From a virus (Duplodnaviria; Caudoviricetes), in IMG/VR virus record IMGVR_UViG_3300027419_000034, positions 1-61,193 of that record: a DNA stretch of 61,193 nt. One strand, given 5' to 3'. Below the pieces are notes generated by a model. That model saw only the letters and a list, made by a program, of their open reading frames with translations. It was not told the origin of the DNA and searched no databases. Shown here one piece after another: positions 25,384 through 55,581 of the stretch. How positions within the stretch are numbered: position 1 is the stretch's first letter; each line of letters starts with the position of its first letter. Position numbers and translations under genes: made by a program.

Positions 25384-25653
25384 ATGGCAGACAATGCGTG
25401 GAACGTAACGTCTCCTGCACAAGGAAAGGTAGTAGTTGTCAGGAACGGTAGCGAATCTCCATATGAGTATCCATCAACTACAAAGTTGGTAGATGCAGTA
25501 AACGATGCCGCTAATGAGGAAGGACTCACTTCGGTAATCGTAAAGACCTCGCGCAATGCAGAGGACACTATCCCGCCAGCAAGGAGTGGAGATACACTCG
25601 CTTCTTTCGGTGGAGTGGTTTACGTCTTTGCAAAGGCACAGGGCGCACAGTAA
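25384..25653 (+). CDS. Putative ubiquitin-like (beta-grasp) protein
   Basis: 89 aa directly upstream of E1; final strand VVYVF followed by KAQG-AQ. Confidence 0.6.
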   Translation: MADNAWNVTSPAQGKVVVVRNGSESPYEYPSTTKLVDAVNDAANEEGLTSVIVKTSRNAEDTIPPARSGDTLASFGGVVYVFAKAQGAQ

Positions 25654-25725
25654 ATTGTTTTGAAGACTTTATTTTTGTCTTCTTTTTTATTTTTTTACGC
25701 TTATACTATATTAAAGGGTTTTATT

Positions 25726-26322
25726 ATGACTAGGAATCTTATAATAATTGGTTGTGGTGGAGTAGGTAGCAATATTGCTATGCTAGTCGCTAGGCACGAA
25801 AGTAATTGTGAATTTAATAAGATTGTGCTAGTAGACCACGATGTAGTCGAGAAGAAGAATCTTTCTAGACAGTTCTTTTTTGAGTGCGATATTGGTAAAC
25901 CAAAAGTCGTTTCTCTTAAAGAGAATCTTTTGAAGGTTTGTCCAGAACTTAGTATTGATATTTATCAACAGAAGATTGTATCTGTTGATGACCTTATGTT
26001 TCTTAAGGCTTATGATGATGGTTATAATACTGCTATTCTTGCTACAGATAATACTGTTAGTAAGAGATTGGTTTATGAGAATTATAATATGGCTGAGAAG
26101 ATTATAATTAATTGTGATAGAGATTATTATGAGATTAAGTTTGAGTTAGATAATGAGGAACTTAATGCTTGGAGTATTGGGACTGGTTATAATTCTACTC
26201 AGACTTGGCTTAGTAATTTAGCTGCATCTGCTTATGTTGTTGGTTTATTCTGTGAACTAACACCTTTAGAACTTTCACATACGAGGAGAAATATAATTGG
26301 TTCGGTGATTGAAGATGAGTGA
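25726..26322 (+). CDS. ThiF/E1-like adenylyltransferase
   Basis: IIGCGGVG, DHDVVEKKNLSRQ, GKPK, ATDN; start MTRN. Confidence 0.92.
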   Translation: MTRNLIIIGCGGVGSNIAMLVARHESNCEFNKIVLVDHDVVEKKNLSRQFFFECDIGKPKVVSLKENLLKVCPELSIDIYQQKIVSVDDLMFLKAYDDGYNTAILATDNTVSKRLVYENYNMAEKIIINCDRDYYEIKFELDNEELNAWSIGTGYNSTQTWLSNLAASAYVVGLFCELTPLELSHTRRNIIGSVIEDE

Positions 26323-27649
26323 TGAATCAGAAGCTATTGTTAGGAGTGCCGCTAGTAGATTAAATTCAGAGTATCTTAATGTTACTATTCCAGAAGGATA
26401 TACTATGACTATACCAGCTAATTCTAATGGAACTACTACTATTAGTGGAAATGTTACTATAGTAGATGGTAAAGATTCTGAATGGAAAGTAGATAAGGCA
26501 AAGAAGACTACTAAGACAAAACAGAAAACTCTTAATAAGTCTGTTGCAGAAATTAGAGATGAACTTGGTTTAGTTACTGCTAAAACTGAGGATGGTAAAA
26601 CTATAGTTACTGTTGCTAAAACTATACCAGTTAAAGGAGATTTTGTTATACATCAAGTTAATCCATCATCTATAAAATATATTGGTATGGTAGTTCAAGA
26701 ACCTAGAGAATATTCTCCATCCGGTTATCAACTACGCGATAATGAATATGGTATTATGATACTAGATGATAGTTTTGCTTCTGGTAATAATCTAAATTAT
26801 GCTCTTAAGAAAGATGGAAGAAATGGAGTATATTGTAATATTTCTTCTCTAGAATATATTAGTCACTCTAATACTTTTATTAGTGGTAATCTCGATACTA
26901 CATATTATCGTCCTAAAACACTAAATAGGATTACTGATAGTTTTTATAAACTAATTACTGATTTTGAAGCAAAGTTTAAAACTGATTTGTCTTTGCTAGA
27001 AAAAGATATCTCTGATGATATTTCTATCATTGTTAGAGATAAGTATAATCATCAGTATGACCAGATTATGATAAATCATAAGAATGAGAAAGCAGAAATG
27101 GAACGTAGATTTGCTGGTATGATAGCAATGCCTAACATATCTTATAGTGATTATCTTACTTTTATTGAACACGGTATGTTCTTTGTTAAAAAGGATAATG
27201 CTATTCTTATATTTAGAAAGGGAACTCATACTGTTAAGATGATTACTATTAGAGATAATGCTATGGGTCTTGAATTACCAGTTCCATTTACTGTTAAAGG
27301 ATATATTGCCATACAATTCTTTAATTCTGGTAATGGATATAAGTATAATGGAGCATACTTCTTTAATAGTAATTTTAGTCCAGTAAAAAGTTATCACATA
27401 TCTAGTAGTAGTGGTAATATTTGCACAGGAGATTTGAAATCAAATCTTAATACTCTTTCATTTAATGCAAGTGAAATAGATAAGGCTATGGATGATATAC
27501 TTTCTATGCTAGAAATAGTAAATCCAACTAGTCCATATAATAATAGAGTTGATGCTAAAGTAGATAAAGCATTAAATAAAGTATTTTGTTGGACTCACAA
27601 GAAATCTAAGGCTTCTTGTGGTTGTGACGAAGAAGACGAGGGATATTAA
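26309..27649 (+). CDS. Putative E2-like conjugating enzyme (C-terminal domain)
   Basis: YHISSSSGNICTGDL resembles the E2 H-x(n)-G-x-I-C site; lies between E1 and JAB. Confidence 0.6.
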   Translation: MKMSDESEAIVRSAASRLNSEYLNVTIPEGYTMTIPANSNGTTTISGNVTIVDGKDSEWKVDKAKKTTKTKQKTLNKSVAEIRDELGLVTAKTEDGKTIVTVAKTIPVKGDFVIHQVNPSSIKYIGMVVQEPREYSPSGYQLRDNEYGIMILDDSFASGNNLNYALKKDGRNGVYCNISSLEYISHSNTFISGNLDTTYYRPKTLNRITDSFYKLITDFEAKFKTDLSLLEKDISDDISIIVRDKYNHQYDQIMINHKNEKAEMERRFAGMIAMPNISYSDYLTFIEHGMFFVKKDNAILIFRKGTHTVKMITIRDNAMGLELPVPFTVKGYIAIQFFNSGNGYKYNGAYFFNSNFSPVKSYHISSSSGNICTGDLKSNLNTLSFNASEIDKAMDDILSMLEIVNPTSPYNNRVDAKVDKALNKVFCWTHKKSKASCGCDEEDEGY

Positions 27650-28582
27650 ATGACTACTGGAAATACTTGGACTATACAAAGTTCAACTAAAAAAGATAAA
27701 ATAGTATTTGATGAAAAGACACCAGTTCCTATAGTAATGTCTCTAGAAGCAGAACAGAAGATTGGTGGTTTGCTTGAAGAGTTTCCAGACCACGAATGGA
27801 TGGCTGGTCTTATAGGAGAAGTAAGAGATGGTTATTACTTTATTACTGATTTGTTTATTCCTGAACAGGAAGGTAGTAAGGCTCTTATAGAAGTTACTAA
27901 TCGTGGAGCAGCAGAGATGGCAGAAGTTAGTCTCTTGGGTTGGCTTCACTCTCATAATACTATGTCTGCTTTCCAGTCTGGAACTGATACTCATACTGCT
28001 CATATGTATGACTTGTCTATTACTGTAAATAATAAGTATGAATATTATGCTACTCTTAAAGTTAATATTCCTGTTGGTGGACAGATGCACTTGAAGTGTG
28101 ATGTTCAGAGGGAATCAATCTTTTTTGTTAATAAGTCTTTTGTAGAAGCTGTTAAAGCAAAGATTACTGTTCGTAACTATGGTTATGCTAACAATGGGAC
28201 TTGTCCTAGGTTTCCATATAAGGACGGTCAGGGAAATCCTATGTGGGAAGATGAAGGGACTTCTTCGCAACAAACTATTCTAGCTCATTCTGATATGGAG
28301 AAGAATACTAATGACTTTCCAGAGTTTAATGACTATCATCCAGATGGTAAGACGTTCTGTGGTCAATGTTCTACTAAGATAAAGGGTCAGAAAGCTGCTT
28401 GGTGTCCTGCGTGTGGTCAGGGTATTCATCTTGGTTGTAGGCAAGCACATAGACGCGGTTGCGAGAAACTCAAAGAGATTAAGAACGCTGAAAAAGATGT
28501 TCAGGAAGAAGTTTTTGATAAGGTTATTGAAAAGGCTATAGAAGAGCAGATTAATACTGATAATGGAGTTATAGCTTCTTAG
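27650..28582 (+). CDS. JAB/MPN+ metallo-isopeptidase with C-terminal Zn finger
   Basis: HEW...WLHSHNTMSAFQSGTD; CxxC...CxxC...HxxC. Confidence 0.9.
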   Translation: MTTGNTWTIQSSTKKDKIVFDEKTPVPIVMSLEAEQKIGGLLEEFPDHEWMAGLIGEVRDGYYFITDLFIPEQEGSKALIEVTNRGAAEMAEVSLLGWLHSHNTMSAFQSGTDTHTAHMYDLSITVNNKYEYYATLKVNIPVGGQMHLKCDVQRESIFFVNKSFVEAVKAKITVRNYGYANNGTCPRFPYKDGQGNPMWEDEGTSSQQTILAHSDMEKNTNDFPEFNDYHPDGKTFCGQCSTKIKGQKAAWCPACGQGIHLGCRQAHRRGCEKLKEIKNAEKDVQEEVFDKVIEKAIEEQINTDNGVIAS

Positions 28583-28583: not shown

Positions 28584-28856
28584 GTGGTATTAATGACTAG
28601 AGTTTTTAAATGCAATAGTGTTAGTTCCACTCTTGGGGTAGTTATTCCTGTTAGTGTTAGGCACGACCTTAATATTATTGTTGGAGATGAGATAGAGTTT
28701 ATTAAGGATAATTCTAATGGAAAGTATTTTATACTACATAATAAGAATCCAAAGAATTTTAAAGGTTGCAAACTATGTGGTAAAGAGGGTAAAGAACCAG
28801 TTTGTGATAATTGTATTAGTAATCTTTCTAAAAAGAAGAAGGAAGCAAAGAGGTAG
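28584..28856 (+). CDS. AbrB/MazE-type DNA-binding protein with Zn ribbon
   Basis: LGVVIP..VR..LNI..GDEIEF; CxxC..CxxC. Confidence 0.8.
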   Translation: MVLMTRVFKCNSVSSTLGVVIPVSVRHDLNIIVGDEIEFIKDNSNGKYFILHNKNPKNFKGCKLCGKEGKEPVCDNCISNLSKKKKEAKR

Positions 28857-41316: not shown

Positions 41317-41949
41317 ATGAATACAGGTAGAGTATGGCTGACAGCAGATACACACTTTAGCCACGAAGTAATGATAGACAAATATGGAAGACCATTTAAG
41401 AATGCGACTGAGATGGATTCCAAACTCATTAAAGCGTGGAATAACTGTGTAGCACCAAATGATACTATACTCCATCTAGGAGACCTATCAATAGTATGCG
41501 GAGACAAAATAGGGTTTATCAACGCAACCAAAATGCAACAAATACTCAATGGACTTAATGGACATAAAGTATTAATTAAAGGTAATCACGATAAGAAATC
41601 AAACGCTTGGTATATGAAAGTAGGATTTGATAATGTCTGTGATGCAATGGTAATAAGTAATAATATATTTACTCATACACCAGTAAAGAGAGAACTAATG
41701 CAATACTTTAAGTATAACTTTCACGGACACCATCACGCTAATGTATCAGAGAGATATAGAAAGAGTGATGGTTATGTTTGTGTTTCTGTAGAAAGAACTA
41801 AGTATCAACCAGTATTATTGAATGGTTTATTGAAAGATTTAAATAACGTGGTTAAACCAAATCATAAAAAATATATTTCTAATCCTGCTTTATATGAAAA
41901 TGATATAGAGGATTGGACAGAGTTTTATAAAGAAAAAACGGAAGGATAA
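41317..41949 (+). CDS. Calcineurin-like metallophosphoesterase
   Basis: DTH, LGD, GNHD, THTP, HGHHH. Confidence 0.92.
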   Translation: MNTGRVWLTADTHFSHEVMIDKYGRPFKNATEMDSKLIKAWNNCVAPNDTILHLGDLSIVCGDKIGFINATKMQQILNGLNGHKVLIKGNHDKKSNAWYMKVGFDNVCDAMVISNNIFTHTPVKRELMQYFKYNFHGHHHANVSERYRKSDGYVCVSVERTKYQPVLLNGLLKDLNNVVKPNHKKYISNPALYENDIEDWTEFYKEKTEG

Positions 41950-45362: not shown

Positions 45363-45436
45363 GGGGATTTAGCTCAGTTCGGTAGAGCATCTGTTTTGCA
45401 AATAGAAGGCCGCGAGTTCAAATCTCGCTTTCTCCA
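45363..45436 (+). tRNA. tRNA-Ala(TGC)
   Basis: TCTGT-TTTGCAA-ATAGA; G3-U70; two acceptor mismatches. Confidence 0.85.
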
Positions 45437-45451
45437 CTAATATTTATTGAA

Positions 45452-45976
45452 GTGTTTATTATGAATTTACTGGTTGTTACAAATTTACAGGAAGCCAATA
45501 TTGCTCTTGAATATCCAATAACATTACGAGAATTAATGTTCTTACAAGAATCTAATATGATTGAAAATGTATATTCATCTAGTGCTTTAATTGATGCTGC
45601 TATAGCTTGGACTTACTTAAAATCAAAGAAGGACTTAACTGAAAAAGATATTCTTAAAGCACATAGTGCATTAATGCGTTCTTATCTTCCTGATAATGAG
45701 GCTGGACATTATAGGACTGTTCAAGTTTATGTTACTGGTTGTAAAGACCTTCCTCCAAAGGCAGAAGAAGTTCCTGCTTTAATGGAAGAGTGGATGGGTA
45801 GAGAGTTTGATAATGAGGAACAGCAGCACGTTGCTTTTGAGAAGATTCATCCTTTTGTGGATGGTAATGGTCGTATTGGTCGTATGTTGTATAATAGGCA
45901 AAGGATTATAAACAAGAAACCAGTTAATGTTATACGCGCTTCTAATAGACAAGAATATTATAAGTGGTTTGAATGA
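45452..45976 (+). CDS. Fic-domain protein
   Basis: HPFVDGNGRIGR. Confidence 0.95.
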   Translation: MFIMNLLVVTNLQEANIALEYPITLRELMFLQESNMIENVYSSSALIDAAIAWTYLKSKKDLTEKDILKAHSALMRSYLPDNEAGHYRTVQVYVTGCKDLPPKAEEVPALMEEWMGREFDNEEQQHVAFEKIHPFVDGNGRIGRMLYNRQRIINKKPVNVIRASNRQEYYKWFE

Positions 45977-46096
45977 CACATAATATAGATAATATGTCAT
46001 TATGTAAGAATGGTTGTTACTGCTTTACATATACAGTTAGAGAAACTAATTGTTGTGGAAAGTGTGGTGTGTATAAAGGAGATTGGAAAGATTAAC

Positions 46097-46172
46097 GGGG
46101 AATAAGTGCTATCTGGTTGCATTAGGCGTTTGGAACGCTTCGGTATCGGTTCAAATCCGGTATTCCTCACCA
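46097..46172 (+). tRNA. tRNA-Pro(TGG)
   Basis: AGGCG-TTTGGAA-CGCTT; CCA encoded. Confidence 0.85.
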
Positions 46173-46176
46173 TTGT

Positions 46177-46250
46177 GGCTCATTCGTATATGAGTATTAT
46201 AGTTGCTTGTCAGGCAATTGAAACGAGTGCGAGTCTCGTATGGGTCGCCA
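46177..46250 (+). tRNA. tRNA-Asp(GTC)
   Basis: GTTGC-TTGTCAG-GCAAT; G73, CCA. Confidence 0.8.
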
Positions 46251-46434
46251 TTAATATATAGAGGGTGTTAAACACGAAAGAACAAGAACTCTAACATTAG
46301 TCCTTCGGGACTTGTTAGAGGAATATAAATGACATCTAAAAACTATAGAAGACTTCCAAAAAATAGGTTAAGAACAAAGTGGTGGAAGATATATAGTAGT
46401 AATGGTGGAAAGAAATAACTTTCTACTATAATAT

Positions 46435-46507
46435 GGGTTTATGGTCTAACTAGGTAGGACAGAAGGTTTACATCCTTCTAGTGAAGATTCAAATTCTTCT
46501 AAGCCCA
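46435..46507 (+). tRNA. tRNA-Val(TAC)
   Basis: GAAGG-TTTACAT-CCTTC. Confidence 0.85.
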
Positions 46508-46529
46508 CTCCGCTAGGTCACACCAAATA

Positions 46530-46600
46530 GGTCTTATAGTTTAGTGGAAAAACACTATGCTGATAACGTAGTGTCCCAAGTTCGATTCTTGGTAAGACCA
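46530..46600 (+). tRNA. tRNA-Ile(GAT)
   Basis: CTATG-CTGATAA-CGTAG. Confidence 0.9.
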
Positions 46601-46605
46601 TTTAT

Positions 46606-46680
46606 GGACGTATAGCTCAATGGCAGAGCTACAGTCTTATACGCTGTTGGTTGGCAGTTCGAGTCTGCCTATGTCCACCA
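46606..46680 (+). tRNA. tRNA-Ile(TAT)
   Basis: ACAGT-CTTATAC-GCTGT; CCA. Confidence 0.88.
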
Positions 46681-46866
46681 TTGTGATTAGTATGAGAAAT
46701 CTAAGAAAAGTGAAGAAAGTAGAGAATTGGATAGCAAAGATTAAACGTGAATCTCCTAAAGGAGTAAGTGTATATGCTTTATCTCACGAAGAGATAGAAG
46801 TTGGTTATCCTGCTATGTCTGGTTTGATTGCTCATAGATATAATATAGCTATTACGTTTATTGAAT

Positions 46867-46938
46867 AGAGATATGGTATAACGGCTATTACAGAGGGCTC
46901 ATAACCCTTTAACGAAAGTTCGACTCTTTCTATCTCTA
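46867..46938 (+). tRNA. Initiator tRNA-Met(CAT)
   Basis: GAGGG-CTCATAA-CCCTT (three G-C pairs); A1-U72. Confidence 0.88.
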
Positions 46939-46941
46939 TAT

Positions 46942-47013
46942 GCCGTAATAACATAATGGTGGTGTGCCTGCCCTGTAAGCAGGAATGTGTAGGTTCGATT
47001 CCTACTTACGGCA
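46942..47013 (+). tRNA. tRNA-Thr(TGT)
   Basis: CCTGC-CCTGTAA-GCAGG; C33. Confidence 0.8.
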
Positions 47014-47016
47014 CTT

Positions 47017-47091
47017 GGATTCGTAGCATAGTTCGGATAATGCGCTTGGCTCTTAACCAAGATATCAAGGGTTCAAATCCCTTCGAGTCCG
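47017..47091 (+). tRNA. tRNA-Lys(CTT)
   Basis: CTTGG-CTCTTAA-CCAAG. Confidence 0.92.
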
Positions 47092-47096
47092 CTTAA

Positions 47097-47169
47097 GCCG
47101 TAATAGCATAATGGTTATTGCACTTGTCTAGTAAACAAGAGATTATAGGTTCGAGTCCTATTTACGGCA
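47097..47169 (+). tRNA. tRNA-Thr(AGT)
   Basis: CTTGT-CTAGTAA-ACAAG. Confidence 0.9.
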
Positions 47170-47414
47170 TACAAAAGTTGGTGATTGATATGGGTAAGAA
47201 GTTTAATGAAGCACAGTTAAAGATAAAACAGATAGAGACGGATATGAAGACTTGTGATATAATGTCTGATAAGTATAGAAATCAGAAAGAAATATTAAAT
47301 GAGCAAAGAAAAATGCTTATTAAAGAATGGTATGGAGTTAATGAAGGAGAGATTATAACTGCTAATACTATTATTAATATTGTTAGATGTATTGATAAGC
47401 AAAAGAAGTAATAA

Positions 47415-47485
47415 GACTATATAGTATAACGGGAGTATATTGGGCTGAAGACCTGAAGGCAAGAGTTCGACTCTCTTTATAGTCA
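47415..47485 (+). tRNA. tRNA-Phe(GAA)
   Basis: TTGGG-CTGAAGA-CCTGA. Confidence 0.85.
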
Positions 47486-47491
47486 TATAAA

Positions 47492-47821
47492 GTGATTACT
47501 ATGGTTAAAGAAGAAGGAACTATAGCTCAACAGACAGAGCAACACTCTACGAAAGTGCAGGCTGTGGGTGCAACTCCCTCTAGTTCCGCTTACGAGTTAA
47601 GTGATAAAGAAAAGTTTGCAGTAGAAATAGTTATTAAGAATCACGAATGTGAAGTTACTAAAGCATTAAAGAATACACATTGTCTTATTAGAAAGATAGA
47701 TAAGATTATAGAGGATGCTTTTACATATAAATATACTCAGACTGGTATTGGAACTGTAACAGAAATTACTTGTGACTTCTGTGATAAAACTTATAATATT
47801 ACTGACTATTCTACTTGGTGA
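47492..47821 (+). CDS. Hypothetical protein overlapping tRNA-Arg
   Basis: C-term YTQTGIGT...CxxC...ITDYSTW looks like a real phage protein. Confidence 0.5.
   Translation: MITMVKEEGTIAQQTEQHSTKVQAVGATPSSSAYELSDKEKFAVEIVIKNHECEVTKALKNTHCLIRKIDKIIEDAFTYKYTQTGIGTVTEITCDFCDKTYNITDYSTW
47516..47588 (+). tRNA. tRNA-Arg(ACG)
   Basis: ACACT-CTACGAA-AGTGC; acceptor GGAACTA/TAGTTCC. Confidence 0.75.
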
Positions 47822-47948
47822 TTATTATGCACGAACATAAATATAAGTTAGTAGATTTTAGTTTTACTAATAATGGTATATGTATGTTAGTAAGATGTGA
47901 ACATCCTAATTGTGGTAAAGAAGTTCATAGTATAGAACACGATTAGAT

Positions 47949-48020
47949 GGGTTTATAGCTCAACGGCAGAGTGTTCGGCTTTTAACCGGAAAGATTAGGG
48001 TTCGATTCCCTATAGACCCA
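47949..48020 (+). tRNA. tRNA-Lys(TTT)
   Basis: TTCGG-CTTTTAA-CCGGA. Confidence 0.92.
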
Positions 48021-48024
48021 CTAT

Positions 48025-48099
48025 GATTATGTTGATGTATTGGTAGCATCCGAGTCTGTGGAACTTGTTGAAAGGGTTCGATTCCCTTACATAATCCCA
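48025..48099 (+). tRNA. tRNA-His(GTG)
   Basis: CGAGT-CTGTGGA-ACTTG; G-1/C73, CCA. Confidence 0.88.
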
Positions 48100-48568
48100 T
48101 TATATTGGGGTGTATTATATGGAAACTATATGGAAAGGTAGAATTGCAATAAATGAATTACAAAAATATCCTACTTGTTTTACAGAACATTTTTATACTA
48201 CTGGAAATACTATAGATGATGCAATTGCTAAAATAAAGAGTTATCTTGAAAAAGAAAAGATTAAGAACTTTGAAATTTTAGAATTAACTTCTTGTTATGG
48301 AACTTTTATTTGAGGTGTATTTGAATGAGTGATAATATTTGGAATATAATTAGTAATGCTAAGAATACTGGTTCTACTATAACTATTGATACTATATATC
48401 ATATTAGAGATGATTATTGTGATTGTGATGAAAGGTGTCATAAGTGTGGTAAGAAGAAGAAAAAGTCTTATCCTTATATAGAACCATTTTCTCCAGCACC
48501 AGACTATCCATATTGGAGTGAACCATATAAGGATGGAATGATTTCCGTAGTTTATTGTAGGTGCTAAG

Positions 48569-48757
48569 ATGAGTGACTGGACTTGGAAACAATATGCCAT
48601 CTACTTGTTTAGGTGGCAATTATCCACTCCAATATTAGCATTAGTATTAATGTTAATGGTTGGATATGATACTTGGGTATCAACTATAGTTGCTAATCTT
48701 ATTGGTGGTTTGATGTTCTTTTGGATTGATATGAGAATATTCAATAAAAAGAAGTGA
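48569..48757 (+). CDS. Small two-TM membrane protein
   Basis: YLFRWQLSTPILA...VANLIGG.MFFWID. Confidence 0.7.
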   Translation: MSDWTWKQYAIYLFRWQLSTPILALVLMLMVGYDTWVSTIVANLIGGLMFFWIDMRIFNKKK

Positions 48758-49232
48758 TTTTATGAATAAACAAATTGGTTGGCAAGAAGCGTTAAGATTG
48801 TTTTATTGTATTCTATTACTTGTAATGTTTTATTTTGGAATGCTTTTTGAACAGTCTAGAGCTTTAGATGTTACAATATCTAACTGTTCATATATTACAA
48901 TACCAAACATTAATAAAACTCAGGATATAATTATTACTGTGACCCCATTACCGACTCCAAGTATTTCGACTGGAAGTAATCCTATTCTGAATAAGATTTT
49001 ACAGGGTAATTATACTGTAAATTATCTTAAGGCTCATTCAGATGGTATTATGGATTATCCTGCCGCTTATAAGATTTGTGATGAGTATATCTGTGTAAGA
49101 TTAACAGTAAATGAGTTTAAAGATTTGAACATAACTGGTGATTGATGTGGGATATTTTAATGAGATGGCAATACCAATTATGCAGAAGTTAGCAGAGAAG
49201 AAAGGTAAGAAGAAAAAGAAGGAAGTTATAGT

Positions 49233-49985
49233 ATGACTGAATTTGAAGATAAGTTTTATAGTGGTATTAGGAAGTATATGATTCAGGAAGAACGTAATCT
49301 TCCTAATGTATATAGAATATCATCTTGTGTATATTGTAAGAGAAAGTCTTATTATTCTAAGGTTTTGAAGAAGCAGTCTGAACCTAATGGTAAGATGCTT
49401 TCTGGAACTTTGTTTCATAGTATTGTTCCTAAAGTTGTTGGAGAACTCATAGAGTTTAAAGACGTTGAGTATGAGAAAGAGTTAGAGTTAGTTTTTGATG
49501 GTTATAAGGTTTTAGGTCATTGTGATGGTTATAGTAAAGATACTTTGTTTGAGTTTAAGTTTACTGCTAAGATAGATTATGAAGAAGTTCCATTACAGTA
49601 TATACTACAGTCTAATTACTATGCTGGTATTGCTAATAAACCTAAGATTAAGATTATACTAATACATAGTGATACACTAAAGGTTAGATGCTATGATATT
49701 AGTTTCTCTCAAGAACTATTTGATAGTATGAATAGAGATATACTAGAAGTTCATAAGTGTATTAGTGAAGGTAAACCACCTCTTGAAGGGCCAAAGTATT
49801 CTTGGGAGTGTAGATTTTGTCCATTCTCTAAGGAGTGTTTTGAAGAGCGTGGTAAGATAGATGAGTATAATGCTCTTATGAAGGTTGGAGAGATTATTAA
49901 GAAAAGGATTGTTAAGAGTAATAGGGCTAAGGCTATTGATGCTAGTAAGATTGTTAATGAGATTATGGAGAGGACTAAGAAATGA
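49233..49985 (+). CDS. Cas4-like PD-(D/E)XK exonuclease
   Basis: C.RK..Y, GT.FH, GHCD, FEFK, Q..YY, ECRFCPF...C. Confidence 0.88.
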   Translation: MTEFEDKFYSGIRKYMIQEERNLPNVYRISSCVYCKRKSYYSKVLKKQSEPNGKMLSGTLFHSIVPKVVGELIEFKDVEYEKELELVFDGYKVLGHCDGYSKDTLFEFKFTAKIDYEEVPLQYILQSNYYAGIANKPKIKIILIHSDTLKVRCYDISFSQELFDSMNRDILEVHKCISEGKPPLEGPKYSWECRFCPFSKECFEERGKIDEYNALMKVGEIIKKRIVKSNRAKAIDASKIVNEIMERTKK

Positions 49986-51047
49986 ATACTGTTATTAATG
50001 GTCTTAAGACTGGAGTATATAAGAAAGAAATTATACAGCATATGAAGAACTCTGGTTTCAAAGTTCTTAAATGGAGAAACAACATACCAGCTTATGCCGA
50101 AAAGGATAACAATGTTTATTCTATTAGAGTTGTAGTAGATACACCGACTACCAGTAAACCATTGATTATGATTGATGGTTTGTTTGCTATGACTAAAAAA
50201 GCCTATAATGTCCTCCAGAAGGTTAAGCCCAAGTTCGCTTGGTATCACCCCAACGAACCAAAAGAACCCAAGAAACAAAGGATAGCTGTGGTTGAGCGTC
50301 CAGATATCGTAAAACACGCCATAGACCCTGCTATACGCTAATCTGTGAGGTCTAGCGTTCAATTTAAGGGCATCTTTTGAAGGTTTTAATTGATTTAATG
50401 ACACTATAATAGTTTTTATATATAAGGTTGATATATATGGTTGTTTCTAATGATGAGTTTTCCAAATACATAAACGCAAAAATAGTATCAATAAACATAT
50501 GCAATGATATAATACATATATATATAAGAAAAGGAAACAATAAAAAAGTATTAAGTATAATAGCACCACTAGGTAAAATAGAAGAATATAAGATAATAAG
50601 ACAAGAAGGAAGTAATACAGTAATACAACCATTAAGAGTAATAGAGGAATTATAATGTGTAACCACGATACCCTACAAGCAGTAATAACATCTAATCCAC
50701 ACGGATGGGCTTCATCATCAGAAAACAGTTTTTTCATCTTCGACTCAAACAGAATGCAAACCCTAATAGGAAAAATATACCAATGCACAATATGCAAAGA
50801 AGAAATAATAATACCAACAGCATTTATATTAAAAAGGTGATACCAATGCCACTAGAAACAATAATAACAAAAAAATGGAGACTCAAAGACATAAACATAC
50901 CAACCAAAGCAAAACTCATAGAAATGGAAGAAGACTGCAATAGAGTAATAGCAGGAAACGAAGGAGACACAAAACTATTCTCACCAGCATTCGTAAACGT
51001 ATGCAAAAGCATACTAGTAGATATAAAGAAAGCAAAAGGTGTAACTA

Positions 51048-51407
51048 ATGAAACTAGCAGTAGTGGGTAGTAGAAGTCTATATAACACACAAGCACAAAC
51101 ACTATTAAGTAATACAATAGACGATATACGCGAATATGCTAAAGTAGAAGAAATAATAACTGGAGGAGCTAGTGGAATAGACGTATTAGCAATAAGATAC
51201 GCTACAATACACAGCATACCATACAAAGTAATAACACCAGACTACAACAAACACGGAAAATACGCACCACTAATAAGAAACAAACAAATAGTAGACGAAT
51301 GCGATAAACTAGTAGCAATATGGGATGGACACTCAACAGGAACATCACACACAGTAAAACTAGCAATGAAACAAAAAAAACTAATAAAAGTCCAACAAGT
51401 AGTTTAA
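51048..51407 (+). CDS. SLOG/YspA-like protein
   Basis: VVGSR, ITGGASGID, A.LIRN..IV, WDG.S.GT. Confidence 0.85.
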   Translation: MKLAVVGSRSLYNTQAQTLLSNTIDDIREYAKVEEIITGGASGIDVLAIRYATIHSIPYKVITPDYNKHGKYAPLIRNKQIVDECDKLVAIWDGHSTGTSHTVKLAMKQKKLIKVQQVV

Positions 51408-51559
51408 CTCTATCTAAGCGAATGTCGTATGGAGAAATAAACAAACGTAGTTTATTGTGACGGCAGAACTGACCCCTGTTCTAAGATTGTGCGTAAGCAC
51501 CCTAGCACTTGAAAAAGTGTTTTAGCATAGAAACTGGTCTGCCTACGATTGCTAAATAA

Positions 51560-51988
51560 ATGGAGATAAACAAAATGACAAACTACACAAGAGGAAGACA
51601 AACAGAATACGAAATAAGAGACTCATTGCGCGAATGCGGGTATGAAGCTATAAGAACTGCCGGGTCTCACAGTCCAATTGATATACTTGGCTGGAACGAC
51701 TTCGAGATTCTTTTTAATCAAATAAAGAGGGTCAAATTTGGAAATAAGTTCTATCCTTCTCCAACCGAAATCAATCGTTTTAAAAACCTCAGTATTCCTA
51801 GTAACGGAAGCAAGTGGATTATAACGAGGATAGATAGTGGAAAGGGCAAAAAAGTAGAATGGACTTTTCAATGCATACAACCTCAAATAGAAAAACAGTT
51901 ATTTATAGGACAGACAATATACGACCATCCACTAATGAAATATTATGAAAGCAAAGGTATAAAATATAGTATGATAACAAATAAATAG
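51560..51988 (+). CDS. hjc: Archaeal-type Holliday junction resolvase
   Basis: NY.RGR..E...R..L...GY...R.AGS...IDI...QIK. Confidence 0.8.
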   Translation: MEINKMTNYTRGRQTEYEIRDSLRECGYEAIRTAGSHSPIDILGWNDFEILFNQIKRVKFGNKFYPSPTEINRFKNLSIPSNGSKWIITRIDSGKGKKVEWTFQCIQPQIEKQLFIGQTIYDHPLMKYYESKGIKYSMITNK

Positions 51989-52342
51989 GTGAGAACAATG
52001 GAAAAAGTAGTAGACACAGAAGGAAAAGAATGTCGGGTATTCTACATACACCACAGAAAGAAAGACTCAAACGGAGTCCCAAAAGCTAACGGTGGAATAA
52101 CCTACGCATACACAACAGTAAACGATGAAGCAAAAGTAGCAACAATAGAAGAAATAAGCTACTGTGCTAAAGCACGTTGCTCAAAGAAAGATGGTTATAG
52201 TAAAAAGACTGGAAGAACAATAGCAACACAAAGACTCCAAAATGCAATGGATATAGAAGTAGAAAGAAACGATATGAATGAAAAGGTGTTTAGCGAGTTC
52301 GTAAAACTCGCACCCACCGAATCAAAAAGAGTATGGGGATAA
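51989..52342 (+). CDS. Small phage protein
   Basis: GGIT...A.CS.KD.Y.KK.GR.IA..RL pattern. Confidence 0.7.
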   Translation: MRTMEKVVDTEGKECRVFYIHHRKKDSNGVPKANGGITYAYTTVNDEAKVATIEEISYCAKARCSKKDGYSKKTGRTIATQRLQNAMDIEVERNDMNEKVFSEFVKLAPTESKRVWG

Positions 52343-52475
52343 ACTATGAATACCTTTGATTTCATAAATAAATACTTCTGGATAATATGGCTTGCATTAG
52401 CAATAATAGGAGTCATATTTGTAGGAGCATTAATATTCATACTAGGCAAATTTCTTAATGCTTGGTAAGAAACAC

Positions 52476-52546
52476 AGTCCTATCGTATAACGGAAGTATA
52501 TTCGGCTCTGAACCGAATGGAATGGGTTCGATTCCTGTTAGGACTA
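52476..52546 (+). tRNA. tRNA-Gln(CTG)
   Basis: TTCGG-CTCTGAA-CCGAA; A1-U72. Confidence 0.88.
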
Positions 52547-52551
52547 TAAAC

Positions 52552-52635
52552 GCTAGTATGGCAGATTGGAGAATGCGGAGGACTTAAAATCCTCTAACCG
52601 CAGGGTTGCTGTCGGTTCGATTCCGACTACTAGCA
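52552..52635 (+). tRNA. tRNA-Leu(TAA)
   Basis: GAGGA-CTTAAAA-TCCTC; long variable arm. Confidence 0.9.
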
Positions 52636-52642
52636 CTATAGA

Positions 52643-52724
52643 ACGCGATGAGCAAGTCGGATAATGCGGGAGACTCAAAATCTCTTGATTTAGTTCTTAG
52701 CAGGTTCAACTCCTGCATCGCGTA
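52643..52724 (+). tRNA. tRNA-Leu(CAA)
   Basis: GGAGA-CTCAAAA-TCTCT. Confidence 0.88.
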
Positions 52725-53038
52725 TAAATAAAAAGAGGAGATTACAATGAAAAACACACAAGATAAAAATACTGTTCTTATAAAACAAATAAGATTAGAA
52801 CAAATAGATGATAAAATACATAGTAAACATAAAAGAGTAGATGATATATATAATGATATAGGAATTAAAAATTCAATAAGAATACCATTTACAAGAATAA
52901 GTATAGTAAAAGATATAAAAGAACTTAGACAACAATTAATTGATTATAATTATTTACAACAAGATATAATAGACCTCTATGAAGAAAGAAGAAAAATAGA
53001 AAAAATAACTACAAAAAATATATTTAAATAAAATAAAA

Positions 53039-53110
53039 GCAGATAAAGTGTTAATGACTGCACGATTGCCTTCCAAGCAATAAGATTGGGTTTAATTCCC
53101 TGTATCTGCA
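53039..53110 (+). tRNA. tRNA-Gly(TCC)
   Basis: ATTGC-CTTCCAA-GCAAT; imperfect T-arm. Confidence 0.78.
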
Positions 53111-53197
53111 TATACAATGTCCGTCAGGTTGCAAGATATCTCAAAGGTATCAACGGAGTGGGGTTTGGAAATACCTGAACTTACTTACCCCAATAAT

Positions 53198-53271
53198 GGT
53201 AGTATGGCTGATTGGTTAGGCATCGGATTGCAGACCCGACTAAAGGAGTTCGATTCTCTTTACTATCTCCA
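53198..53271 (+). tRNA. tRNA-Cys(GCA)
   Basis: TCGGA-TTGCAGA-CCCGA; U73, CCA. Confidence 0.85.
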
Positions 53272-53292
53272 AAAAAGTAGGTGAAATAAATA

Positions 53293-53691
53293 ATGAGAGG
53301 ACAAGGAGAAATAGCATACACACTACTAATAGCAGGAATACTGTTATTTGCAGTAGCAGGATGGATGGTAGTAGCACCACTATATGGAGTATGGCAACAA
53401 GAATAAGAAGGAAAAGCAGAATACGCAAAAGCAGAATATAGTAGACAAATAGCAGTAGTAGAAGCACAAGCAAAACTAGACTCAGCAAGCAAACTAGCAG
53501 AAGCAGAAGTTGCTAGAGCAAGAGGAGTAGCACAAGCAAACGAAATAATTGGTGCATCACTAGAAAACAACGAAGCATATCTACACTATCTATGGGTAAA
53601 CAATCTTGAAAAGATAGGTAATGCACAAGTAATATATGTGCCAACAGAAAATGGTATGCCAATAATGGAAGCAGGAAGAACAATAAAATAA
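53293..53691 (+). pseudogene. Phage membrane protein with in-frame TAA at codon 38
   Basis: MRGQGE..TM..PLYGVWQQE*EGKAEYAKAEYSRQIAVVEAQA...YLHYLW...VIYVPTENGMPIMEAGR. Confidence 0.75.
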
Positions 53692-53718
53692 ACAGATTGG
53701 GATAAAACCCAATCCAAT

Positions 53719-53789
53719 GTTCGTTTGGTATAGAGGAAACACATTAGGCTTTCGACCTAAAATCACGGGTTCGAGTCCCGTAACGAACA
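53719..53789 (+). tRNA. tRNA-Glu(TTC)
   Basis: TTAGG-CTTTCGA-CCTAA. Confidence 0.88.
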
Positions 53790-53814
53790 CTAAAACAAAA
53801 AGAGGTAATAAACA

Positions 53815-54039
53815 ATGAACATTATGAAAGCACTAGAAAATCTAGGAATAGTAGTAGCAGTAATAGCAGTAGTAGCAATAGTAATCTTCCTCGTAGGATG
53901 GATATTCTCCCTATTCTGGAACTTTGTAATGCCATACTTGTTCGGACTTAAAGAAATAGATTGGGCGCAAGCACTCGCAGTATTAGTAGTGTTCCAAGCA
54001 CTCTTTGGAAAAAGCGTTCCAGTAAACGTAAAAGTCTAA
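53815..54039 (+). CDS. Small membrane protein
   Basis: WNFVMPYLFGLKEIDWAQAL. Confidence 0.7.
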   Translation: MNIMKALENLGIVVAVIAVVAIVIFLVGWIFSLFWNFVMPYLFGLKEIDWAQALAVLVVFQALFGKSVPVNVKV

Positions 54040-54047
54040 ACAAATAA

Positions 54048-54119
54048 GTTCGTATAGTTTAAGAGCAAAATACTTGGTTCTCAACCAAGAGACTTTGGGT
54101 GCGAGTCCCAATACGAACA
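54048..54119 (+). tRNA. tRNA-Glu(CTC)
   Basis: CTTGG-TTCTCAA-CCAAG. Confidence 0.85.
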
Positions 54120-54149
54120 TTTTTATATTAAAACAAACAATATAATATG

Positions 54150-54220
54150 CTTGTCTTAGCTCAATGGCAGAGCAATCGGCTGTAGACCGAAAGATGCGAG
54201 TTCGACTCTAGCAGATAAGA
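54150..54220 (+). tRNA. tRNA-Tyr(GTA), archaeal type
   Basis: TCGG-CTGTAGA-CCGA; C1-G72, short variable loop. Confidence 0.8.
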
Positions 54221-54227
54221 CTCTAAA

Positions 54228-54299
54228 GGGATTATAGTGTAATTGGCAACACAACAGTCTCCAGAACTGTTATTAAAGATTCGACTTCTTTTAATCCCA
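54228..54299 (+). tRNA. tRNA-Trp(CCA)
   Basis: ACAGT-CTCCAGA-ACTGT. Confidence 0.85.
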
Positions 54300-54306
54300 C
54301 TCAAAT

Positions 54307-54382
54307 GGTAATGAAGTGTAACTGGTTGCATTTTCGACTGTTAATCGAAAGGTAGATAGTTCGAGCCTATCCTTTACCGCCA
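54307..54382 (+). tRNA. tRNA-Asn(GTT)
   Basis: TTCGA-CTGTTAA-TCGAA; G73, CCA. Confidence 0.85.
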
Positions 54383-54384
54383 AT

Positions 54385-54460
54385 GGACTTATAGCATAAC
54401 TTGGACAATGCACCGGACTTCTAAGCCGTGATTATTCGGGTTCAAATCCTGATAAGTCCG
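54385..54460 (+). tRNA. tRNA-Arg(TCT)
   Basis: Loop CTTCTAA; imperfect anticodon stem. Confidence 0.8.
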
Positions 54461-54464
54461 TAGA

Positions 54465-54551
54465 ACCAGTATAAGACGAAATGGTTAAACGTCACCCGCT
54501 AAGAACGGGATGCCCGTAGGGGCTTTGTGGGTTCAAATCCTACTACTGGTA
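54465..54551 (+). tRNA. tRNA-Leu(AAG)
   Basis: CCCG-CTAAGAA-CGGG; long variable arm. Confidence 0.82.
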
Positions 54552-54556
54552 TGAAT

Positions 54557-54639
54557 GTTGGGATAACCTAATCTGGTAAGGTAACGGTTTGCTAAACCGT
54601 GATGTAAAAGTCTTATGGGTTCAAATCCCATTCCTAACG
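54557..54639 (+). tRNA. tRNA-Ser(GCT)
   Basis: ACGGT-TTGCTAA-ACCGT; G73. Confidence 0.88.
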
Positions 54640-54646
54640 CTCAAAA

Positions 54647-54733
54647 GGCAGTCTTCTCCTAAACGGTAAAGGTCTCGTCTAGAAAACGAGGGCTGTAACA
54701 GGCATACAGGTTCGACTCCTGTGGCTGTCGCCA
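54647..54733 (+). tRNA. tRNA-Ser(AGA)
   Basis: CTCGT-CTAGAAA-ACGAG; long arm, G73, CCA. Confidence 0.82.
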
Positions 54734-54745
54734 TAATATATTAGA

Positions 54746-55267
54746 GTGATAACTATGATACTATATAACTATTCAAATTTTAACAATAATCTAATAGAAA
54801 AAATGTATAATTTTTCAAACCCAATAAAAGATGAACATATACCACTAATAATAAAAGACTTTAACAAAATAGAATATAAATGGCATAATCCAGAAGTTGT
54901 AGTATCTTTAGGATATTTTAATTGGACAAGAACTAACTATAATTCTAAAAGAAAACCAAATATAAAAATATTAGTAAATAGTAACTTTAATAAATTTCCA
55001 TTTATATGTAAAGGATTTAAAAATTATTATGGAGAAGAATACTTAGAAAAAGAATTTAAAAATAATGAAGAAGTATTACTAACAACAATAGCACACGAAC
55101 TTTATCATTATAAACAATTTAAAGATAAAACTGCATATAAAGAAAAAGATGCAGATACTTATGCAATAAAAAAACTAGACGAATGGAGAACTATAATGGC
55201 TTCGAGTCATATACAACCTTTTCAAGAGAAGTTATACGAGCAAGAATCCTACTCTCCAAATCATTAA
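54746..55267 (+). CDS. HExxH zincin-like metallopeptidase
   Basis: TIAHELYH.KQ...EKDAD.YA. Confidence 0.75.
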   Translation: MITMILYNYSNFNNNLIEKMYNFSNPIKDEHIPLIIKDFNKIEYKWHNPEVVVSLGYFNWTRTNYNSKRKPNIKILVNSNFNKFPFICKGFKNYYGEEYLEKEFKNNEEVLLTTIAHELYHYKQFKDKTAYKEKDADTYAIKKLDEWRTIMASSHIQPFQEKLYEQESYSPNH

Positions 55268-55572: not shown

Positions 55573-55581
55573 TACTACTTC

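Follow-up and report, generated by a model that had tools for sequence, protein, structure and literature searches.

Ubiquitin-like tagging machinery has so far been studied in bacteria only as antiviral defense; at the locus described here, a virus carries what looks like machinery of this kind. The window, meaning the whole stretch of DNA analyzed, is a record of 61,193 bp that represents the complete genome of a tailed virus (CheckV 100%); ORF scans identified genes for a terminase, a Mu-like portal, an HK97-type capsid, a tape measure protein, and RecT. At positions 25384–28582, four plus-strand ORFs abut or overlap in the order Ubl-E1-E2-JAB. The ORF list thereby bears out the four co-oriented, adjacent genes described in an earlier sequence-only reading of this DNA, and all of the motifs quoted in that reading are present in the ORF translations. 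In the collections searched, neither the virus nor any one of its four cassette genes had a close relative. The evidence set out below suggests that the four genes probably form a virus-encoded cassette for conjugation of a ubiquitin-like protein (Ubl).

The second gene (25726..26322, plus strand) is firmly assigned by sequence to the ThiF family, as a minimal E1-like adenylating enzyme (Pfam ThiF, PF00899; 81 bits vs. a cut-off of 28.1; E 9.8e-23). Its ORF (25660–26322) is open from a TTG at 25660 and would specify 220 aa from there; the ATG at 25726, which gives 198 aa, is the likelier start. The best PDB match is MccB (E 5e-11), followed by UBA6 (3e-9) and UBA5 (1e-7). In an alignment of 25 viral E1s that includes the window protein, G9, G11, G14, D37, D39, E42, N45, K60, and D108 are invariant, and the window E1 also has Arg48 in the motif NLSRQ. 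All of the ATP-site columns are present, in agreement with the claim of an E1 with intact ATP motifs. A column following this core is occupied by Cys in 24 of the 25 sequences and by Trp149 in the window protein, where the loop is shortened. The alignment is divergent in this segment, but the absence of a Cys between residues 131 and 175 of the window E1 is independent of it. With no catalytic Cys in the crossover loop, the window enzyme does not fit a canonical thioester-forming E1; loss of the loop Cys could equally fit a decayed or a repurposed protein.

The fourth gene (27650..28582, plus strand) encodes a 310-aa protein containing HSHNTMSAFQSGTD, which corresponds to HxH-x7-S-xx-D at residues 100–113. 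The motif lies in a JAMM domain (residues ~27–140) and supplies His100, His102, Ser110, and Asp113; Glu49 is the probable catalytic Glu, judged from its neighborhood in the alignment with AMSH. In the PDB, the AMSH-like sst2 matches at E 6.1e-7, and the HxH...S..D motifs of the two proteins align. Because the Pfam scores fall just under threshold (PF01398, 21.0 bits vs. 22.5; PF14464 [Prok-JAB], 19.0 vs. 25), family membership was drawn from the PDB match and the motif, which together give good sequence-based grounds for a JAB/JAMM metallopeptidase. A PADLOC model also matches it (E 0.036). A Cys/His cluster occupies residues 231–265, and C1-domain chains match residues 226–277 at E 0.003–0.3, pointing to a C1-type two-zinc finger at residues ~226–272 (28325..28465). 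The JAB peptidase with an intact motif and a Zn finger, as originally described, was thus recovered.

The third gene (26309..27649, plus strand) encodes a long protein of 446 aa that contains ...SYHISSSSGNICTGDL..., an H-x5-GNIC motif. Its start codon is uncertain because the Atlas record of the protein begins at residue 3 (ATG at 26315). Its first ~200 aa have no assignment. Residues ~203–271 are predicted to form a long helix and residues ~253–446 a C-terminal UBC-like domain (27065..27649), which contains His363 and, as the putative catalytic residue, Cys372 (codon 27422–27424). The protein has no family match in the libraries used (Pfam, including the full-length search, PADLOC, and NCBIfam). 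Seven relatives were found, five of them in JAB–E1 neighborhoods on viral or metagenome contigs; distant relatives include P0003 (E 6.5e-7) and P0004 (E 4e-5), and others are located in the viral cassettes L017, L061, L048, and L082. In an alignment of eight sequences (A6), the N, C, and G of the motif are invariant (the Cys in 8/8), with the consensus HP..H..S.GNIC.GN ... LESVN..D. None of the eight matched the UQ_con, Prok-E2_A-E, or E2-CBASS models at E ≤ 10. When the A6 profile was compared to the PDB, all 45 matches at E ≤ 10 were E2 enzymes, the best having an E of 0.073 and none being individually significant, and Cys372 aligned with their catalytic Cys. Structural comparisons were less informative. 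The AF2 model is poor (pLDDT 38.7) and yielded nothing usable in either fold search, but its residues 279–429 show the element order of a UBC domain; structure neighbors in the Atlas are Prok-E2_D clusters (TM 0.47–0.50, most rows below 0.5). Alignment of the family to eight viral Prok-E2_D proteins with hhalign gave weak links, with P values of 0.0097 and 0.025 at a probability of 2–4%. The E2-like assignment draws its support from a family profile that matches only E2 enzymes in the PDB.

The first gene (25384..25653, plus strand) encodes an 89-aa candidate for the precursor of the modifier. Its C terminus, ...VVYVFAKAQGAQ, presents a single Gly (Gly87, the predicted reactive residue) followed by Ala88-Gln89, and not Gly-Gly. 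The ORF is not simply a chance frame: a Shine-Dalgarno-like AGGTGA precedes its ATG, its composition is of the coding type (GC1>GC2>GC3, 0.58/0.48/0.42), two predictors fold its product, and that product aligns with small proteins from three other cassettes. The protein belongs to no Pfam, PADLOC, or NCBIfam family, and a search of 5.8 billion proteins recovered only itself. Its ESM Atlas model (pLDDT 0.70) is nearest to UBX, SUMO, and ubiquitin folds (TM 0.60–0.68), and its AF2 model (pLDDT 63) has the order strand-strand-helix-strand-short helix-strand. In a Foldseek search of the PDB, the best E was 3e-3 (TM 0.5–0.6) with no match at E ≤ 0.001, and 47 of the 48 listed rows were ubiquitin-like proteins or tags; VIA gave Z scores of 5.6–6.2 and an rmsd of 2.3–3.3 Å over 65–79 residues. 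Among solved structures, those of ubiquitin, SUMO, ISG15, and UBX come closest. The two independent models, both of middling confidence, thus predict the β-grasp fold for which structure prediction and Foldseek had been proposed as the check.

Gene context was surveyed in 80 viral contigs carrying a relative of the E1. A JAMM-motif ORF is located on the E1 strand in 75 of these, and a JAB match was detected by phmmer (E ≤ 0.01) in 45, abutting the E1 gene in 41. The window JAB is homologous to the JAB genes of these 45 loci and to those abutting E1 genes in FpV4 and a crAss-like phage; JAB–E1 pairs are near-universal in crAss-like phages, where they reside within replication modules. Eight of the 80 loci contain a relative of Prok-E2_D, and Pfam searches of 116 neighboring proteins from 27 loci identified modules of Prok-E2_D, JAB, and ThiF, encoded on one strand, in four (L007, L011, L021, and L029). 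The survey of synteny suggested by the sequence-only reading also located the same four parts on further viral contigs, at least three in number. L017 carries a 406-aa E2-like protein, JAB, E1, and a 73-aa protein ending in KG-N; L061 has a 76-aa protein ending in KG-AR, a 392-aa E2-like protein, JAB, and E1; and L028 has a 458-aa protein with GGTNICQG, JAB, E1, and a 125-aa protein ending in RG-A. Gly87 is invariant (4/4) in an alignment of the window protein with these three small proteins, each of which continues for one or two residues. Among the small proteins, L017 is linked to L061 (1e-8) and to L028 (1e-4); the window tag has a weak link to L028 (E about 3e-3) and no BLASTP similarity to the tag of L017. 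Among the E2-like proteins, L017 is linked to L061 (1e-10), and the window protein to L017 (5e-4 in a four-sequence set; BLASTP E 0.004; hhalign P 0.0025).

The closest relative of the window E1 is archaeal, a cellular short ThiF encoded in a Thermoplasmata bin, to which it is 50% identical across 78 aa (E 8e-22); the gene for this ThiF precedes a 66-aa, GG-ending ORF of the ThiS/MoaD type. The nearest NCBIfam model is the short ThiF/ThiS adenylyltransferase PRK08644, the model for the SAMP-activating E1 (SAMPActivE1UbaA) also scores (E 1e-10), and one of the four cassette small proteins matches SAMP2 (E 0.016) and ThiS (E 0.099). E2-free archaeal SAMP systems comprise SAMP, UbaA, and a JAMM peptidase; together with ThiS-ThiF systems, they resemble the window in their small β-grasp protein, short ThiF-type E1, and JAMM peptidase; an E1 with no loop Cys is also reminiscent of adenylate-only enzymes. 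The cassette might accordingly be a SAMP/ThiS-like system with no true E2, in which the small protein carries sulfur or acts as a modifier independently of any E2, the ThiF-type E1 activates it, the JAMM peptidase matures or removes it, and the 446-aa protein is a target, an adaptor, or unrelated. This reading is considered unlikely. The NCBIfam scores are far under their cut-offs (83 vs. 159 bits for PRK08644 and 41 vs. 450 for the UbaA-type model), and Pfam scans of the 102 window ORFs identified no sulfur-transfer, thiamine, or molybdopterin genes, consistent with the earlier statement that sulfur-transfer genes are absent nearby. The window tag has a lone Gly followed by two residues at its C terminus, whereas the carriers of the SAMP and ThiS-ThiF systems end in Gly-Gly. 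In the 446-aa family, the Cys of the UBC-like loop is invariant, and family members accompany JAB–E1 pairs in other viral contigs. Membership among archaeal SAMP systems was rejected on the UbaA-type score and the presence of the E2-like gene. E1-like genes have been reported from archaeal viruses: three ThiF/E1-like proteins are described for the tailed Nidhogg viruses of Helarchaeota, with the proposal that they exploit ubiquitin systems of the host (10.1101/2021.07.29.454249), and MoeB/ThiF is said to be one of the auxiliary genes found most often in archaeal viruses (PMC8276007). As far as these reports describe them, E1 occurs there alone, whereas the window virus adds a tag, an E2, and a peptidase. 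No similar virus-borne Ubl cassette was found in print.

The complement of parts also resembles bacterial Bil (BilABCD, types I and II), which corresponds, in the scheme of Iyer, Burroughs and Aravind 2006 (PMC1779556), to operon classes 6d/6c. Both comprise a Ubl, a catalytic-Cys E2 (the Cys being putative in the window), a JAB/JAMM peptidase that is nearest to AMSH-type enzymes (in Bil, as described), and an E1, and neither has an E3 gene. A short overhang follows the reactive Gly in each: BilC is reported to cut BilA between Gly97 and Ala98, the counterpart of Gly87-Ala88, and the Bil E1 and E2 to conjugate the Ubl to lysines (PMC10557695). The differences are substantial. Bil resides in a bacterial defense island and the window cassette on a virus; the BilD E1 is described as a three-part IAD-AAD-CYS protein (PMC11601596), whereas the window E1 is a single 198-aa domain with no Cys domain; the reported Bil gene order is consistently bilA-B-C-D (PMC10557695), vs. 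Ubl-E1-E2-JAB; and the window E2 has 446 aa, a His before the Cys (HPN-like), and no library model. In Bub (6E/DUF6527), as described, the crossover loop of the E1 likewise carries no catalytic Cys, which sets a precedent, and the JAB matures the Ubl (PMC11601596). The same account gives Bub oxyester intermediates, Ubl-E2 and JAB-E1 (also E2-E1) fusions, a DUF6527 serine protease, and no catalytic cysteines, whereas the window genes are separate, its E2 family has an invariant Cys, and Pfam scans of the window ORFs found no DUF6527. CBASS Cap2/Cap3 (an E2-E1 fusion with a CD-NTase) was rejected: PADLOC E1-E2 models align to the window protein by their E1 portion only (e.g., positions 360–463 of 605), and no nucleotidyltransferase appeared in the Pfam scans. 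Cassettes of Prok-E2_D, Prok-JAB, and ThiF from phages, plasmids, and ICEs, which we take to be those termed 'PRTRC', likewise place E2, JAB, and E1 side by side on one strand of a mobile element, and share with the window the loop pattern N...G-x-(I/V)-C-x-G. They constitute class 6b of Iyer et al. 2006 (PMC1779556). The window E2 is twice as long and has HP.H/H...C vs. LPN...C; it gave no match to PF14460 at E ≤ 1, nor did any of the eight family members at E ≤ 10, and its profile instead matches E2s of the canonical eukaryote type in the PDB. Membership in Bil, Bub, Cap2/3, and Prok-E2_D was rejected in each case. Of the earlier description as a Bil-type Ubl-E1-E2-like-JAB set, the core stands for all four parts, which recur together in other viral contigs; the Bil-type label was lost to the single-domain, loop-Cys-free E1 and the gene order. 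The roles put forward there (tagging of host proteins, engagement of the archaeal SAMP/proteasome system, or counter-defense) and the early-region timing are conjectural.

Phages and mobile elements often carry defense genes. The same chemistry might serve another role, in which a virus-carried defense system tags and disables rival viruses that share its host cell (superinfection exclusion). The prokaryotic Ubl-E1-E2 systems studied are all read as antiviral (PMC11601596), and Bil is reported to conjugate its Ubl onto the central tail fiber of the phage (10.1101/2023.09.04.556158). We regard this role as improbable. PADLOC defense models for the tag or E2 had no sequence match in the window, the E1 was detected by its adenylation domain only and the JAB at the E value given above, and the Pfam scans turned up neither a CapH/CapP- nor a WYL-type regulator such as those described for Bub operons. 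Furthermore, the JAB–E1 pairs in crAss-like replication modules look like core viral genes and not an accessory defense island.

In GC content, the small gene deviates more strongly than any other gene of the virus (GC 0.49 vs. 0.33; GC3 0.42 vs. 0.15–0.25 in its neighbors). Directly 3′ of it, a hairpin read from the sequence (25662..25697, plus strand; GAAGAC, a 9-nt loop, and GUCUUC, then a U-run) folds at −6.9 kcal/mol (z −3.0), a stability reached by 1 of 200 shuffles. A consensus scan did not list it, apparently because its loop exceeds the 8-nt limit of that scan. The hairpin and U-run possibly act as a partial terminator that keeps the tag in excess over the enzymes. This composition, the hairpin separating the gene from E1, the MccB match of the E1, and the crAss-like and FpV4 modules that have JAB and E1 with no recognizable small tag gene would also fit an 89-aa gene that is an unrelated recent import, with the three enzymes acting on another protein or peptide C terminus (e.g., by MccB-like peptide adenylation), but this is very unlikely given a predicted β-grasp protein with Gly in the right position two residues from its end, three other viral cassettes with a small Gly-plus-1–2 protein beside the same enzymes, and a capsid gene whose GC3 is also raised (0.30), so that high expression can explain the composition.

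For a conjugation cassette, the following sequence of events is proposed. The 89-aa β-grasp protein would be made as a precursor, probably in excess, given its unusual codon composition and the hairpin and U-run after its stop codon. The JAMM peptidase would remove Ala88-Gln89 to expose Gly87, which the 198-aa E1, with its nucleotide and Mg site residues intact, would adenylate with ATP. Since this E1 has no loop Cys, Cys372 would attack the acyl-adenylate directly; the long E2 to which this Cys belongs may then use its large N-terminal half to select a target and pass the tag to a lysine. The JAMM peptidase may also strip the tag from conjugates. The cassette lies in a non-structural, rightward-transcribed block of the genome, and we therefore think that its use in infection is the modification of proteins of the host or the virus and not the building of virions.

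A more specific proposal is offered tentatively, and we consider it possible but doubtful: that the virus runs its own two-enzyme Ubl cascade offensively, with a Cys-less E1 that only adenylates and a long, target-selecting E2 that takes the tag, so that host (possibly archaeal) proteins are tagged during takeover. The E2 signature, HP-H/N ... G-N-I-C ... L-x-x-V-N-P-x-D, would on this proposal be nearer to that of eukaryote-type UBC enzymes than to that of any catalogued prokaryotic E2 family. If this is true, the E2 family of uncultured viruses and small-genome archaeal bins would represent a missing link in how E2 enzymes originated.

The virus record (61,193 bp) has a completeness rating of 100% and averages 33% G+C, and no close relative of the virus was found in the collections searched. 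Its − strand encodes the large terminase, a Mu-like portal, an HK97-type capsid protein, a minor head protein, and the tape measure (1–18.4 kb and 55.8–61.2 kb). A + strand block (about 18.9–55.6 kb) consists mostly of small orphan genes, together with genes for RecT, a Cas4/RecB-like nuclease, an RNA ligase-like protein, a phosphoesterase, a Fic/DOC protein, and an Hjc-type resolvase. The cassette sits within this nonstructural + strand block. The sequence-only reading had described four abutting, co-oriented genes with diagnostic motifs, and all of these are present as + strand ORFs (25384–28582): an 89-aa ORF with the C terminus ...AKAQG-AQ, an E1, a 446-aa ORF containing H-x5-GNIC, and a 310-aa ORF containing HSH-x7-S-xx-D and a Cys/His cluster. 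Directly 3′ of the JAB peptidase gene, a SpoVT-AbrB (AbrB/MazE-like) domain is fused to a zinc ribbon (28584–28856); this protein matches a PHROG annotated as "antitoxin" (E = 1e-6) and may regulate the cassette. Shine-Dalgarno-like words lie 5′ of 33 of the 83 window genes, vs. 12% of random 15-mers, and a AAAGAGGTAGATT-like motif recurs a few bases 5′ of the starts at 23734, 28863, 29451, 29944, and others. The + strand also carries 27 tRNA genes (45363–55573), including one for tRNA-Ile(UAU); a tRNA-Met has three G-C pairs in its anticodon stem, yet its first pair is U1:A72. Amid the tRNA genes lies the Fic/DOC family gene (45452–45976; Pfam E = 4e-15).

The E1 ORF is open from a TTG at 25660 (220 aa), with an alternative ATG at 25726 (198 aa). 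The 198-aa product is more likely, because the first 22 residues of the longer ORF are hydrophobic and the later start has the arrangement AAGGG-N7-ATG. The protein scored 81 bits against Pfam ThiF (cutoff 28.1); of the proteins with solved structures, MccB, UBA6, and UBA5 match it best. Curated short ThiF-type enzymes provided the nearest models; scores fell well below the equivalog cutoffs, so the E1 was not assigned to any of them. When 25 viral E1s were aligned, the ATP/Mg-site columns were all invariant and are kept in the window E1, which is the only one to lack the Cys after the core: Trp149 occupies the Cys column, the loop is shortened, and residues 131–175 contain no Cys. A Thermoplasmata bin provides the closest match among named genomes (50% over 78 residues, E = 8e-22), a short E1 that stands before a 66-aa ORF with a Gly-Gly end, a cellular carrier-type context.

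The 89-aa tag matched no family in the searched libraries and had no relative among 5.8 billion proteins. The β-grasp fold suspected for it was supported by structure prediction. A single-sequence AlphaFold model (pLDDT 63) has the β-grasp element order, and a Foldseek comparison with the PDB named a ubiquitin-like protein or tag in 47 of the 48 listed rows, with a best E-value of only 3e-3. Among these rows are two chains of bacterial BilA (8tyz_B and 8tyx_A) as well as Caldiarchaeum ubiquitin. A VIA search gave Z scores of 5.6–6.2 (e.g., ubiquitin 1sif, rmsd 2.3 Å, 65 of 71 residues), and an ESM Atlas model (pLDDT 0.70) had its nearest neighbors among ubiquitin, UBX, and SUMO-type domains (TM 0.60–0.68). 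No other 270-bp stretch of the genome is as G+C-rich as the tag gene (25384–25653; 0.49 vs. 0.33); its GC3 is 0.42, compared with 0.15–0.25 for its neighbors and 0.30 for the capsid gene. A hairpin with a U-run follows it (ΔG −6.9, z −3.0). Either strong expression or a recent import could account for the high G+C; the composition and the hairpin would both suit a product needed in bulk.

The 446-aa protein matched nothing in the searched family libraries, and a word-index search returned 0 matches among 6,095 candidates. An exhaustive HMMER search identified two stand-alone proteins related to its last 190 residues, P0003 (E = 6.5e-7) and P0004 (E = 4e-5). The match P0002 (3,664 aa, E = 1.3e-27) was rejected, as a single local similarity of ~32 bits had been counted 26 times in this Rib-repeat protein. 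A profile search with a three-sequence alignment (A1) recovered only the two members of A1 itself, nothing was confirmed when viral contigs were scanned with the 446-aa protein, the JAB, A1, P0003, or the E1 alone, and a metagenome contig scan with P0003 gave no match. Genomic context was decisive: viral loci recovered with an E1 alignment yielded additional relatives. A 406-aa gene at locus L017 is related to the window protein (BLASTP E = 0.004; hhalign P = 0.0025), and a 392-aa gene at L061 is homologous to that of L017 (1e-10). An iterative HMM search seeded with A1 and L017 did not grow, unlike one from a second seed set. HMM searches placed further relatives at L048 and L082; L028 narrowly missed the threshold (E = 0.016). 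Two binned contigs also carry family members: L114, from a Woesearchaeota bin (E = 1.3e-8, hhalign P = 3e-4), and L161, from an Obscuribacterales bin (E = 6.7e-12). At L017, L061, L028, and L114, the E2-like genes adjoin JAB and E1 genes.

The AlphaFold model of the 446-aa protein is poor (pLDDT 38.7), with only residues 280–400 reaching 50–75; these form a helix, four strands, a loop with His363 and Cys372, and then helices. With this model, whose quality keeps a fold search from counting either for or against a UBC fold, a VIA search of the PDB was swamped by coiled-coil matches to a predicted helix (residues 203–271), and Foldseek returned unrelated folds (best E = 0.09). The structures nearest to the Atlas model were viral Prok-E2_D clusters, at TM values (0.47–0.50) that provide a lead only. 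In an alignment of eight family members (A6), an Asn, the Cys, and a Gly are invariant, within the consensus HP..H..S.GNIC.GN ... LESVN..D. When the A6 profile was compared with 177,635 PDB sequences (E ≤ 10), all 45 hits were ubiquitin-conjugating enzymes (best E = 0.073), and the alignments span the HPN motif, the catalytic Cys, and the LL..PNP.D helix. The earlier three-sequence profile had given one PDB match, likewise an E2. Speaking against an E2, none of the eight family members matched UQ_con or any Prok-E2 Pfam model, and hhalign comparison with eight viral Prok-E2_D proteins was weak (P = 0.01–0.025). On balance, the 446-aa protein is probably an E2, an assignment based on the exclusiveness and register of the hits because no single E-value is significant.

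The JAB scored 21.0 bits with Pfam, just below the threshold of 22.5, and a phmmer search of PDB sequences identified AMSH-like peptidases (E = 6e-7) with the metal motif aligned. Its residues 226–277 weakly match C1-type zinc fingers (E = 0.003–0.3). The Cys/His spacing, C-x2-C-x11-C-x2-C-x4-H-x2-C-x7-C, fits the consensus of a C1-type two-zinc finger, here annotated at residues 226–272 (28325–28465). Zinc modules recur on differing cassette parts, namely the JAB C terminus and the Cys-rich zinc-ribbon tails of the E2-like relatives P0003 and L061:2741–3919, and may have an E3-like or targeting role.

Viral contigs were scanned with an E1 alignment, yielding 80 loci. A JAMM-motif ORF lies on the E1 strand in 75 of them; phmmer detected a JAB match in 45, which abuts the E1 in 41 cases. 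JAB–E1 pairing is the rule in viral contigs carrying an E1, crAss-like gut phages included. In Flavobacterium phage FpV4 (L002), Kehishuvirus (L003), and about 40 crAss-like loci, an unassigned gene (~420–444 aa), a JAB (~410 aa), and a ThiF protein, commonly with an N-terminal extension of ~150 aa, form a conserved triad in this order. It lies next to primase and UDG genes within the replication module, and the only annotations are "thiamine biosynthesis protein" and "metalloprotease." Neither the 446-aa protein nor the tag showed similarity to the genes flanking JAB–E1 in FpV4 and a crAss-like phage, and the ~420-aa genes there are therefore not claimed as E2s. Pfam analysis of 116 neighbors at 27 loci revealed Prok-E2_D, JAB, and ThiF modules at L007, L011, L021, and L029. 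The survey of synteny proposed alongside the sequence-only reading recovered all four parts of the window set at L017, L028, and L061, where the small proteins end in KG-N, RG-A, and KG-AR, respectively (QG-AQ in the window). Viral JAB–E1 loci thus recur, three with all four parts, which makes the window cassette a divergent representative of a class of viral cassettes rather than a one-off.

Several of these loci have additional features. L114 (24% G+C) carries two E2-like genes (HHPHINGNEGNDICFG, HPHIHQSGSPCFG), a JAB, and an E1 on one strand, along with a close homolog of the window phosphoesterase (41317–41949; E = 8.6e-21). The contig probably comes from a related virus or mobile element that was assigned to the bin of a DPANN archaeon. 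At L004, L010, L012, and L081, the JAB–E1 pair has a gene for a reverse transcriptase within about 300 bp downstream (RVT_1, E = 1e-18 to 1e-20). L063 and L068 each contain two ThiF genes and a JAB, and at L024 the ThiF gene adjoins one for an 888-aa Rpb1-like RNA polymerase subunit.

The residues expected for adenylation and JAMM catalysis are in place, and Cys372 falls on the catalytic Cys of E2 enzymes in the alignment; the mechanism beyond these residues is inferred by analogy with Bil, the known system most like the cassette in its working. In Bil, the peptidase cleaves the Gly97–Ala98 bond, and the E1 and E2 build lysine conjugates that the peptidase reverses (PMC10557695). Because the window E1 lacks the Cys, its adenylate may be attacked directly by the E2 Cys. 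Bub offers a documented E1 without a catalytic Cys, though it uses oxyesters (PMC11601596). As no E3 is present, the obvious candidate for target choice would be the N-terminal half of the E2 (250 residues), in which no assignable fold was found. Judged by membership tests, the cassette does not belong to Bil, Bub, Cap2/3, PRTRC-like Prok-E2_D, or SAMP.

One of the cassette small proteins weakly matches SAMP2 and ThiS, and the set might be a SAMP/ThiS-like system that is E2-independent or supplies a sulfur carrier; set beside the exclusively E2 matches of the A6 profile, this is unlikely. Use of the same chemistry as a virus-borne defense against other viruses appears quite unlikely. That the small ORF is unrelated to the enzymes is very improbable: its models resemble ubiquitin, and a small protein accompanies the enzymes at three other loci. 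For the preferred reading, a virus-borne conjugation pathway, the openly accessible literature that was searched yielded no complete virus-borne Ubl–E1–E2–JAB set; it describes bacterial systems and, for archaeal viruses, E1 genes alone. The cassette stands apart through its viral ownership, its Cys-less minimal E1, and an uncatalogued family of long E2-like proteins whose active-site signature resembles that of eukaryotic E2s.

The hints to the host conflict. The nearest E1 comes from a Thermoplasmata bin, a Woesearchaeota-bin contig carries E2-like, JAB, E1, and phosphoesterase homologs, and the Hjc resolvase matches Nanoarchaeota, all pointing to archaea. RecT, the hairpin-type terminator, and Bacteroidota phage homologs of the E1/JAB pair point to bacteria. 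The terminase matches Bacteroides phages at 25% identity only, and no relative of it was found in named genomes. Among the fetched loci, the best matches to the Hjc-type resolvase (51560–51988) lie ~1 kb from Nanoarchaeota E1 genes (L131, L144, L125, and L163; E = 6e-7 to 8e-5).

In the prokaryotic systems characterized so far (Bil, Bub, and CBASS Cap2/3), ubiquitin-like conjugation serves the host in fighting viruses. A virus-owned set of tag, E1, E2, and peptidase reverses this picture and gives a concrete four-gene system for testing. It raises the questions of what a virus tags, in its host or in itself, and whether a Cys-less E1 can feed an E2 directly. Because JAB–E1 recurs in 75 of the 80 viral E1 loci and the uncatalogued E2-like family accompanies some of these pairs, a function found for this cassette would probably apply to many other viruses that are abundant.
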